Source of the DNA: a virus
Lineage: Duplodnaviria > Heunggongvirae > Uroviricota > Caudoviricetes
Direction: 5' to 3' (one strand)
IMG/VR virus record: IMGVR_UViG_2695420897_000008
Length of the DNA stretch: 39,495 nt
Position numbers and translations under genes: made by a program. Below the pieces are notes generated by a model. That model worked only from the letters and a program-made list of their open reading frames with translations, searched no databases and was not told the origin of the DNA. Below, piece after piece: positions 148-549 of the stretch. The first letter of the stretch is position 1. Each line of letters begins with the position of its first letter.

Positions 148-549
148 TCAATCTCCAAAAGCAATCCAGTAAGCAAAAGGATTTACTCCTTGCTCAGTCA
201 CAGATGACATCAGGGAAAATTGCGATGGTGAAACAGGTAATGCTGCAAAACTAACCATTGTTGACACACCTGACCGTGCATTATCGTACGATGCAACAAC
301 ACAATAATTGGTATTGCTGAAAGATATCGGCAGGGTGATATTTACAGGTGAGCCTAATGGCCCTGATGCTGATATTCCCATTTGAATGATGGTTCCATCA
401 GGCAATTTTCTCCAGCGATTAGAACTCGGATTTCTTTTCCAGGCAGACATATCCGGTATCTGATTTTCTCCTGTACCCACATCCCTTTTCGCCGCTTCTC
501 CCAAACCAACGTTTATGAAAATGCAGAGATAACGGGCAACTGGCATCAT
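148..549 (-). CDS. Tail-fibre C-terminal variable cassette (Sv'-type), probably promoterless and expressed only when joined to a tail-fibre constant region
   Basis: Minus-strand ORF; residues 15-61 are encoded by the 142-bp repeat shared with the tail-fibre gene at 6032-6173, then a unique C-terminus. The listed Met start has no convincing RBS. Confidence 0.6.
   Translation of the reverse strand: MMPVARYLCIFINVGLGEAAKRDVGTGENQIPDMSAWKRNPSSNRWRKLPDGTIIQMGISASGPLGSPVNITLPISFSNTNYCVVASYDNARSGVSTMVSFAALPVSPSQFSLMSSVTEQGVNPFAYWIAFGD
368..509. repeat. 142-bp repeat, copy A (identical to 6032-6173, same orientation)
   Basis: Base-by-base comparison of the two stretches in the window; encodes GLGEAAKRD...QMGISAS on the minus strand. 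Confidence 0.9.
496..521. other. gix/hix-like crossover site for a serine invertase, copy A (TTCTCCCAAACC AA CGTTTATGAAAA)
   Basis: 26-bp site with 12-bp half-sites around a central AA, resembling the hix/gix pattern TTCxxGxAAACC-NN-GGTTTxxCxxAA; lies 56 bp upstream of the invertase start, and the two repeat copies diverge immediately after the central AA. Confidence 0.6.

Follow-up and report, generated by a model that had tools for sequence, protein, structure and literature searches.

Judged by sequence, the two crossover sites of this prophage are pixL and pixR, the recombination sites of the Pin DNA invertase, a member of the Hin/Gin/Cin/Pin serine recombinase subfamily. In the window (the whole stretch of DNA analysed, 39,495 nucleotides long) these two sites stand in the same orientation, within a rearranged version of a tail-fibre switch. 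A tandem duplication followed by a site-specific pix x pix inversion is the best explanation of this layout, and we put its probability at about 0.6. The sites themselves are not new. Both pixL and pixR are already characterised, and related genomes have the switch as an annotated feature; the small interest here is the rearrangement, which we regard as a modest curiosity.

The identity of the sites is clear. The sequence-only reading had placed gix/hix-like invertase sites at 496-521 and 6160-6185, and it placed them correctly. Both agree with a published pix site at 26 of 26 positions (pixL and pixR are included among the tabulated target sites of the Din invertases, Hin/Gin/Cin/Pin; PMC3241671, Table 3), and alignment with hix, gix and cix gives 16-20 matches out of 26. 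We also scored the window with a weight matrix that took hix, gix, cix, mix and bix sites as its sole input, pix being left out. The two sites, both of them + strand hits, reach 32.7 and 28.2 bits, and shuffled versions of the window (n=30) reach at most 21.1 bits, with a mean of 12.1. The next-best real position in the 39.5-kb window scores only 13.0 bits and therefore no third pix-like site, inverted or otherwise, stands above background there. E. coli K-12 MG1655 has the pixL and pixR 26-mers unchanged next to pinE in its e14 prophage, and the pixR 26-mer is also present in reference loci L001 and L002.

In each site a 2-bp core separates two imperfect inverted half-sites of 12 bp. The site inside the tail-fibre gene had been described as close to palindromic, which holds loosely: its half-sites match at 9 of 12 positions, and those of pixR at 8 of 12. 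As the same reading had it, the two sites share the left half-site and central AA (TTCTCCCAAACC plus AA in both) and then diverge, the first difference being C510 versus G6174. The homology does stop at the core, its outer limit being the start of the half-site on the side of the constant fibre region (Sc) or of pin. The features of the window are collected in Table 1.

Table 1. Features of the window, with the evidence for each
Feature	Position	Strand	Evidence and remarks
IS66-family element, terminal 112 nt	1..112	-	Matched at 100% by IS66-like elements of many E. coli records; match to 12009 prophage begins only at 113
IS66 terminal inverted repeat GTAAGCGTCGTCTCAGCACC	93-112	read on -	IS66 inserted 32 nt into tfaB
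tfaB, first 32 nt; tail-fibre assembly gene of SvB cassette	113..144	-	Colinear with L001, L003; RefSeq annotation
SvB, complete alternative tail-fibre C-terminal cassette (Gp53-like_C)	148..549	-	PF21882, E = 8e-14; silent copy, abuts pixR; gp53-like protein in 12009 annotation
Direct-repeat copy 1	368..509	.	pixR inner half-site and core, plus first 128 nt of SvB beyond
pixR, pin-proximal crossover site	496..521	+	TTCTCCCAAACC AA CGTTTATGAAAA; 26/26 to published pixR
pin pseudogene, DNA invertase	577..1130	+	1-nt deletion at 875/876, aligned to K-12 pinE
215-aa ORF, prophage right end, function unknown	1211..1858	-	Hypothetical in 12009 RefSeq; no Pfam hit
yfhH	2498-3346	-	99.9% colinear with 12009; RefSeq coordinates transferred
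pgpC	3555-4190	+	99.9% colinear with 12009; RefSeq coordinates transferred
tadA	4248-4751	+	99.9% colinear with 12009; RefSeq coordinates transferred
mltF without first ~260 nt (intact 1,557 nt)	4748..6041	-	12009 mltF match ends at 6041; SLT domain
Truncated tail-fibre gene	5956..6528	-	Annotated start corresponds to 6510; no Pfam domain
mltF/SvB junction microhomology GCTGATATTC	6032..6041	.	10-mer exactly twice in 12009 locus
Direct-repeat copy 2	6032..6173	.	Partial duplicate of SvB 5' end, plus pixL inner half-site and core
pixL, site inside tail-fibre gene (coding on - strand)	6160..6185	+	TTCTCCCAAACC AA GGTTTTCGAGAG; 26/26 to published pixL
DUF2612/wedge baseplate gene	6510-7190	-	Start of prophage body
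Baseplate J gene	7187-8386	-	Start of prophage body
Prophage body	~6510-38446	-	Match to 12009 prophage

The ordinary layout of the switch can be seen in two E. coli O103:H2 strains, 12009 and 129. The window comes from E. coli, and its positions 113-6041 are 99.9% identical to strain 12009. In both strains the order is prophage body (baseplate J, DUF2612) and the tail-fibre gene containing pixL; then cassette 1 with its chaperone, the opposed chaperone with cassette 2, and pixR; and finally pinE (annotated as frameshifted), the 215-aa ORF, yfhH, pgpC, tadA, an intact mltF and purL. The tail-fibre segment lies in opposite orientations in 12009 and 129, the exchange falling inside the shared TTCTCCCAAACCAA / CTTCTCCCAAACCAA, so that both natural orientations are found, with breakpoints at the sites. 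In the ordinary layout of this myovirus-like prophage adjoining yfhH the inverted sites are ~1.9 kb apart, and inversion swaps which C-terminal cassette joins the constant N-terminus of the fibre. The opposed alternative C-termini with their chaperones are present in 12009 and 129; the window shows only SvB and the 32 nt of tfaB before IS66.

The same architecture recurs more widely. In the reference loci (K-12 e14 and 12 others) the sites flank a tail-fibre segment of ~1.8 kb, or 4.5 kb where an IS66 lies inside, and the native inverted repeat is ~15-16 bp, made up of the shared inner half-site and the core. The P segment of e14 measures 1,797 bp and its 16-bp inverted repeat is the same as CTTCTCCCAAACCAA (PMC12529663). 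The two sites are on opposite strands in 13 of the 13 reference loci holding both (L001, L002 and L004-L014), and the window alone has both on the + strand. As a separate observation, the insertion point of IS66 in the window (112/113, at nt 32 of tfaB) has no counterpart among 5,426 complete genomes of E. coli; in FDAARGOS_1059 (L008) the segment does contain an IS66, but at another position and in the opposite orientation.

The window departs from this architecture in its repeats. Its two repeat copies are identical at 142 of 142 nt and form a direct repeat, 5,664 bp from start to start, whose right-hand end is the 14 nt shared by pixL and pixR. The sites are likewise 5,664 bp apart, and the asymmetric core reads AA on the + strand in each. 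The sequence-only reading had interpreted the end of homology as the boundary between the inverted repeat of an invertible segment and unique DNA. The assignment to the Gin/Hin type of site stands, but the repeat is direct and the sites are head-to-tail. Nor is the 142-nt repeat the native inverted repeat of both cassettes, a candidate we rejected: in 12009, SvA departs from SvB one base past the half-site. At repeat position 78 (window 445 and 6109) the base is A in both copies but T in 12 reference loci, and this private base is expected in both if one copy derives from the other. The A is synonymous, and the 12 T-bearing cassette copies span three different chromosomal loci.

Head-to-tail sites have consequences for recombination. 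When two sites lie on one molecule, inversion is the only reaction that this class of invertase catalyses efficiently (PMC4513852), and it is Fis-independent (hyperactive) mutants that delete between directly repeated hix sites (PMC4817059). Because the pair is head-to-tail and the class efficiently inverts only, a recombination test on this pair would be expected to be unproductive. We reason that pixL and this pixR should be inert as a pair, able neither to invert nor efficiently to delete the DNA between them. We also considered and set aside a resolvase/res deletion system, in which directly repeated sites have accessory recombinase-binding subsites: the orientation here is direct as well, but each site is a simple 26-bp pix site, identical to those of invertases, and the recombinase is an invertase of the Gin/Pin type.

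The expressed tail-fibre gene is altered as well. Its ORF runs from the constant N-terminal Sc into the 5' end of SvB and then into 23 out-of-frame codons of antisense mltF. As far as ...IIQMGISAS the encoded protein agrees with the strain-129 fibre of 232 aa; it then goes out of frame and stops. The translation thus predicts that the expressed fibre gene is truncated and without the Gp53-like C-terminal receptor-binding domain.

We can account for this structure with two events. The 10-mer GCTGATATTC, an overlap of mltF and SvB sequence at which the repeat has its inner end, lies once in SvB and once in mltF of the 12009 locus, in direct orientation and 5,664 bp apart. From that locus we assembled in silico the product of a tandem duplication between the 10-mers followed by inversion at the core dinucleotide, pixL with the distal pixR. 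Window positions 113-10703 align with this product as one gapless 10,591-nt HSP with 6 mismatches (99.94% identity). Against the duplication alone, or against the native 12009 locus, the match breaks into pieces.

In the proposed course of events, a 5,664-bp tandem duplication would have arisen between the two direct copies of GCTGATATTC. The duplicated unit would comprise the first 142 nt past pixR, pin, the hypothetical ORF, yfhH, pgpC, tadA and mltF minus its first ~260 nt. A site-specific pix x pix inversion would then have recombined pixL with the distal copy of pixR. Alternatively, a 5.66-kb circle could have been excised at the microhomology and integrated at pixL, which would give the same product. 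Either route would leave pixL beside the 142-nt SvB stub and the truncated mltF, and the proximal pixR head-to-tail with pixL. The pix sites here were evidently used. The order of the events, the part played by an invertase (probably acting in trans) in the second step and a second copy outside the window are what we infer from the fit.

This proposal makes predictions about the DNA to the left. Beyond IS66 there should lie the rest of tfaB, tfaA, SvA, a third site (pixR-b), pin, the host genes and an intact mltF-purL; pixR-b and the intact mltF are out of view because the window starts inside IS66. The 5.5-kb block would be present twice, in inverted orientation, and since its copies would be inverted, the inversion should have stabilised the duplication.

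The arrangement is private to this source. Neither the mltF/SvB nor the IS66/tfaB junction occurs in the 5,426 complete E. coli genomes. A 40-mer across the mltF/SvB junction was not found in viral, species-representative genome or metagenome collections, and a 38-mer across the IS66/tfaB junction was not found in the species-representative genome collection. We found no record of the fusion fibre protein, and look-ups with the SvB and truncated MltF ORFs returned only ordinary layouts or frameshift-ridden assemblies. With the junctions and the fusion protein on no other record, the arrangement therefore rests on one sequence.

Other origins have to be weighed against duplication and inversion. 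The most literal one takes the sites as the bounds of an invertible segment (522-6159) flipped by Pin or Gin, which is how the interval had at first been read. Authentic pix sites with an invertase gene between them do look superficially like hin inside the H segment. However, the shared polarity of the sites refutes this idea. An inverted partner site is absent from the whole window, and the enzyme class, as noted above, efficiently inverts only, with deletion left to hyperactive, Fis-independent mutants. Moreover, the interval holds no tail-fibre cassette but the pin pseudogene and the host core genes yfhH, pgpC, tadA and mltF'. We see virtually no chance that it is correct. An assembly or library artefact has more to recommend it, although we still place it on the unlikely side. 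The ordinary layout in a population of mixed orientation would supply SvB-pixL and SvB-pixR junctions that are both real, but in different cells, and the mltF/SvB join would be a chimeric read or contig. Both junction types are indeed natural switch states, the mltF/SvB junction is unique to the window sequence, and an assembler that placed a single real copy in two positions would likewise yield 142/142 identical copies, each with the private SNP. Yet mixed orientation alone cannot produce the mltF/SvB join, and an overlap of 10 nt is too short for k-mer or overlap assemblers to link nodes. The join is not terminal but 6 kb into the 39-kb sequence, and the structure is exactly as two common biological events predict.

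A second copy of the prophage could also be invoked. A single illegitimate recombination, a microhomology-mediated inversion or deletion, would have joined SvB (nt 142) to mltF, with the body coming from a second copy elsewhere in the SvB-beside-pixL state. The same phage family does occur at other chromosomal loci (L013, L014). The first 8.2 kb of the body are 99.4-99.99% identical to every reference copy at any locus, so that their origin is unassignable, and deeper in the body the identity to the 12009 prophage drops to 99.5% and 98.6%, with two replaced stretches. Against this, the rearrangement would have to act over a long range with just 10 nt of homology, and mltF would be left disrupted. 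This origin also gives no account of a private SNP in two different prophages that is missing from 12 reference copies. The 12009-type 10-mers are, by contrast, direct repeats 5.66 kb apart, a classic substrate for local tandem duplication. We consider a second prophage very unlikely as the origin. We also rejected, on paper, a simple inversion between the 10-mers with strain 129 as the starting orientation: no complete SvB could then remain beside pixR, and a duplicated 5' end of SvB cannot be avoided. Insertion of the prophage into mltF by Mu-like transposition was rejected too; the junction falls within a tail-fibre cassette, not at a phage end.

Duplication followed by inversion calls for a working invertase, and the resident gene is indeed broken. 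The frameshift truncates the product after ~120 aa, and the gene is annotated as 'frameshifted' in 12009 and 129. The window thus contains an invertase gene in the expected place, its 5' end 56 bp from pixR, in frameshifted form. Once repaired, the product is 91% identical to PinE and has Resolvase and HTH_7 domains; the closest solved structure is that of Gin (PDB 3uj3, E = 5e-93). At the DNA level, positions 495-1131 (site plus gene) are 85% identical to the K-12 pinE stretch. A Fis-bound enhancer would be expected ~100 bp from one site, in the 5' coding region of the invertase, as in Hin (PMC3798978). A consensus promoter scan from pixR to the pin ATG returned no pin promoter, a result that is uninformative.

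The frameshifted allele is nevertheless found with both states of the switch. Its 554 nt are 100% identical in 14 complete genomes, with SvB beside pixR in 5 (two of which, H10407 and SEC470, look like one strain) and beside pixL in 9. Both orientations among carriers of the broken gene mean that inversion has happened among them, which implies either that the invertase gene lies at another place or that the frameshift is somehow bypassed. PinQ, PinR and PinE all invert the P segment of e14 (PMC12529663). Two reference loci hold prophages of the same family with identical pixL and pixR and an intact 184-aa pin, one (L013) beside ProQ-/Prc-like host genes and the other (L014) beside RecE/RecT-/KilR-like prophage genes, and prophages of these types are candidate donors of an invertase in trans. 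Because the resident pin is frameshifted, Pin paralogues act on the e14 segment and relatives with an intact pin exist, we infer that trans action is the likely source of the inversion.

The closest known system is the e14 P segment of K-12 with Pin (pixL, pixR, pinE, stfP/tfaP, tfaE/stfE). Beyond the identical sites and the close relationship of the invertases, e14 and the related genomes follow the same logic: a constant fibre N-terminus, a site, two opposed C-terminal cassettes with chaperones, a second site and pin. The window differs in several respects. Its element is a different, full-length prophage adjoining yfhH, whereas e14 sits at icd; its pin is frameshifted; its sites are direct and enclose host genes; part of one cassette is present twice, and the fibre that is expressed is cut short.

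Other close systems are the G segment of Mu (Gin/gix), the C segment of P1 (Cin/cix) and the H segment of Salmonella (Hin/hix). They too have 26-bp sites with 12-bp imperfect half-sites and a 2-bp core, and the window invertase is a close homologue of Gin, but the half-site sequences differ. The homology in Mu spans the whole site, and P1 has inverted repeats of 0.6 kb. By contrast, the native repeat of the present switch is short, and the 142-nt repeat of the window is a secondary direct duplication. If the predicted third site exists, the locus would also resemble Min/mix of p15B, in that its three pix sites would be of mixed polarity and its invertible segments would be nested. Unlike Min and the shufflons, it shows two sites in the window, the third being predicted outside, and the extra site would come from a recent duplication carrying host genes rather than from an evolved array of fibre cassettes. 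Shufflons, moreover, use a tyrosine recombinase.

If duplication and inversion are the right explanation, the rearrangement records a pix site that was copied by microhomology, 5.7 kb away, and used for inversion despite a resident pin that is a pseudogene. Such use would agree with recent evidence for trans action of several Pin paralogues on the same sites. The rearrangement would also show a route to the fixation of a tandem duplication, in which an invertase turns one copy round and so draws host genes into the switch region of a phage. For annotation, the tail-fibre gene and the mltF copy of the window are best treated as truncated fusions, and the site pair should not be called an invertible element.

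An inert pair would be fortunate, because the interval holds tadA, and tadA is essential. A RecA-mediated exchange between the copies of the 142-bp direct repeat could remove the interval, and the Sc-SvB fibre would again be intact; this state would be viable only if a second copy exists. A bolder reading is that the rearrangement is real and still active, a three-site Pin system with ~5.5 kb of host chromosome, tadA included, inside an invertible segment. An unstable tandem duplication would then have become, through the inversion, an inverted and stable one, and an invertase in trans would flip pixL or pixR-a with pixR-b, alternating truncated and complete fibre. We consider this bolder reading as a whole distinctly unlikely.

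Other parts of the window also vary. Beside the 215-aa ORF lies an unannotated 113-aa ORF (1917-2258, - strand) with no Pfam match. In the 215-aa ORF region, between pin and yfhH, prophages at other loci differ, with only 94% identity that ends ~1,060 nt into the left block. The immunity region at 31171-32635 (ORF 31442-32116, + strand; a repressor with HTH and S24-peptidase domains) has no megablast match to the 12009 prophage, which suggests a swapped immunity module; the rest of the window prophage is otherwise 98.6-99.5% identical to that of 12009. The right end, 38447-39495, has no match in the 12009 prophage either. It contains an ORF on the + strand (38523-39284, 253 aa) with a TIR domain of the CAP12/Pycsar-effector type (PF10137, E = 3e-31), a possible cargo gene for anti-phage defence.
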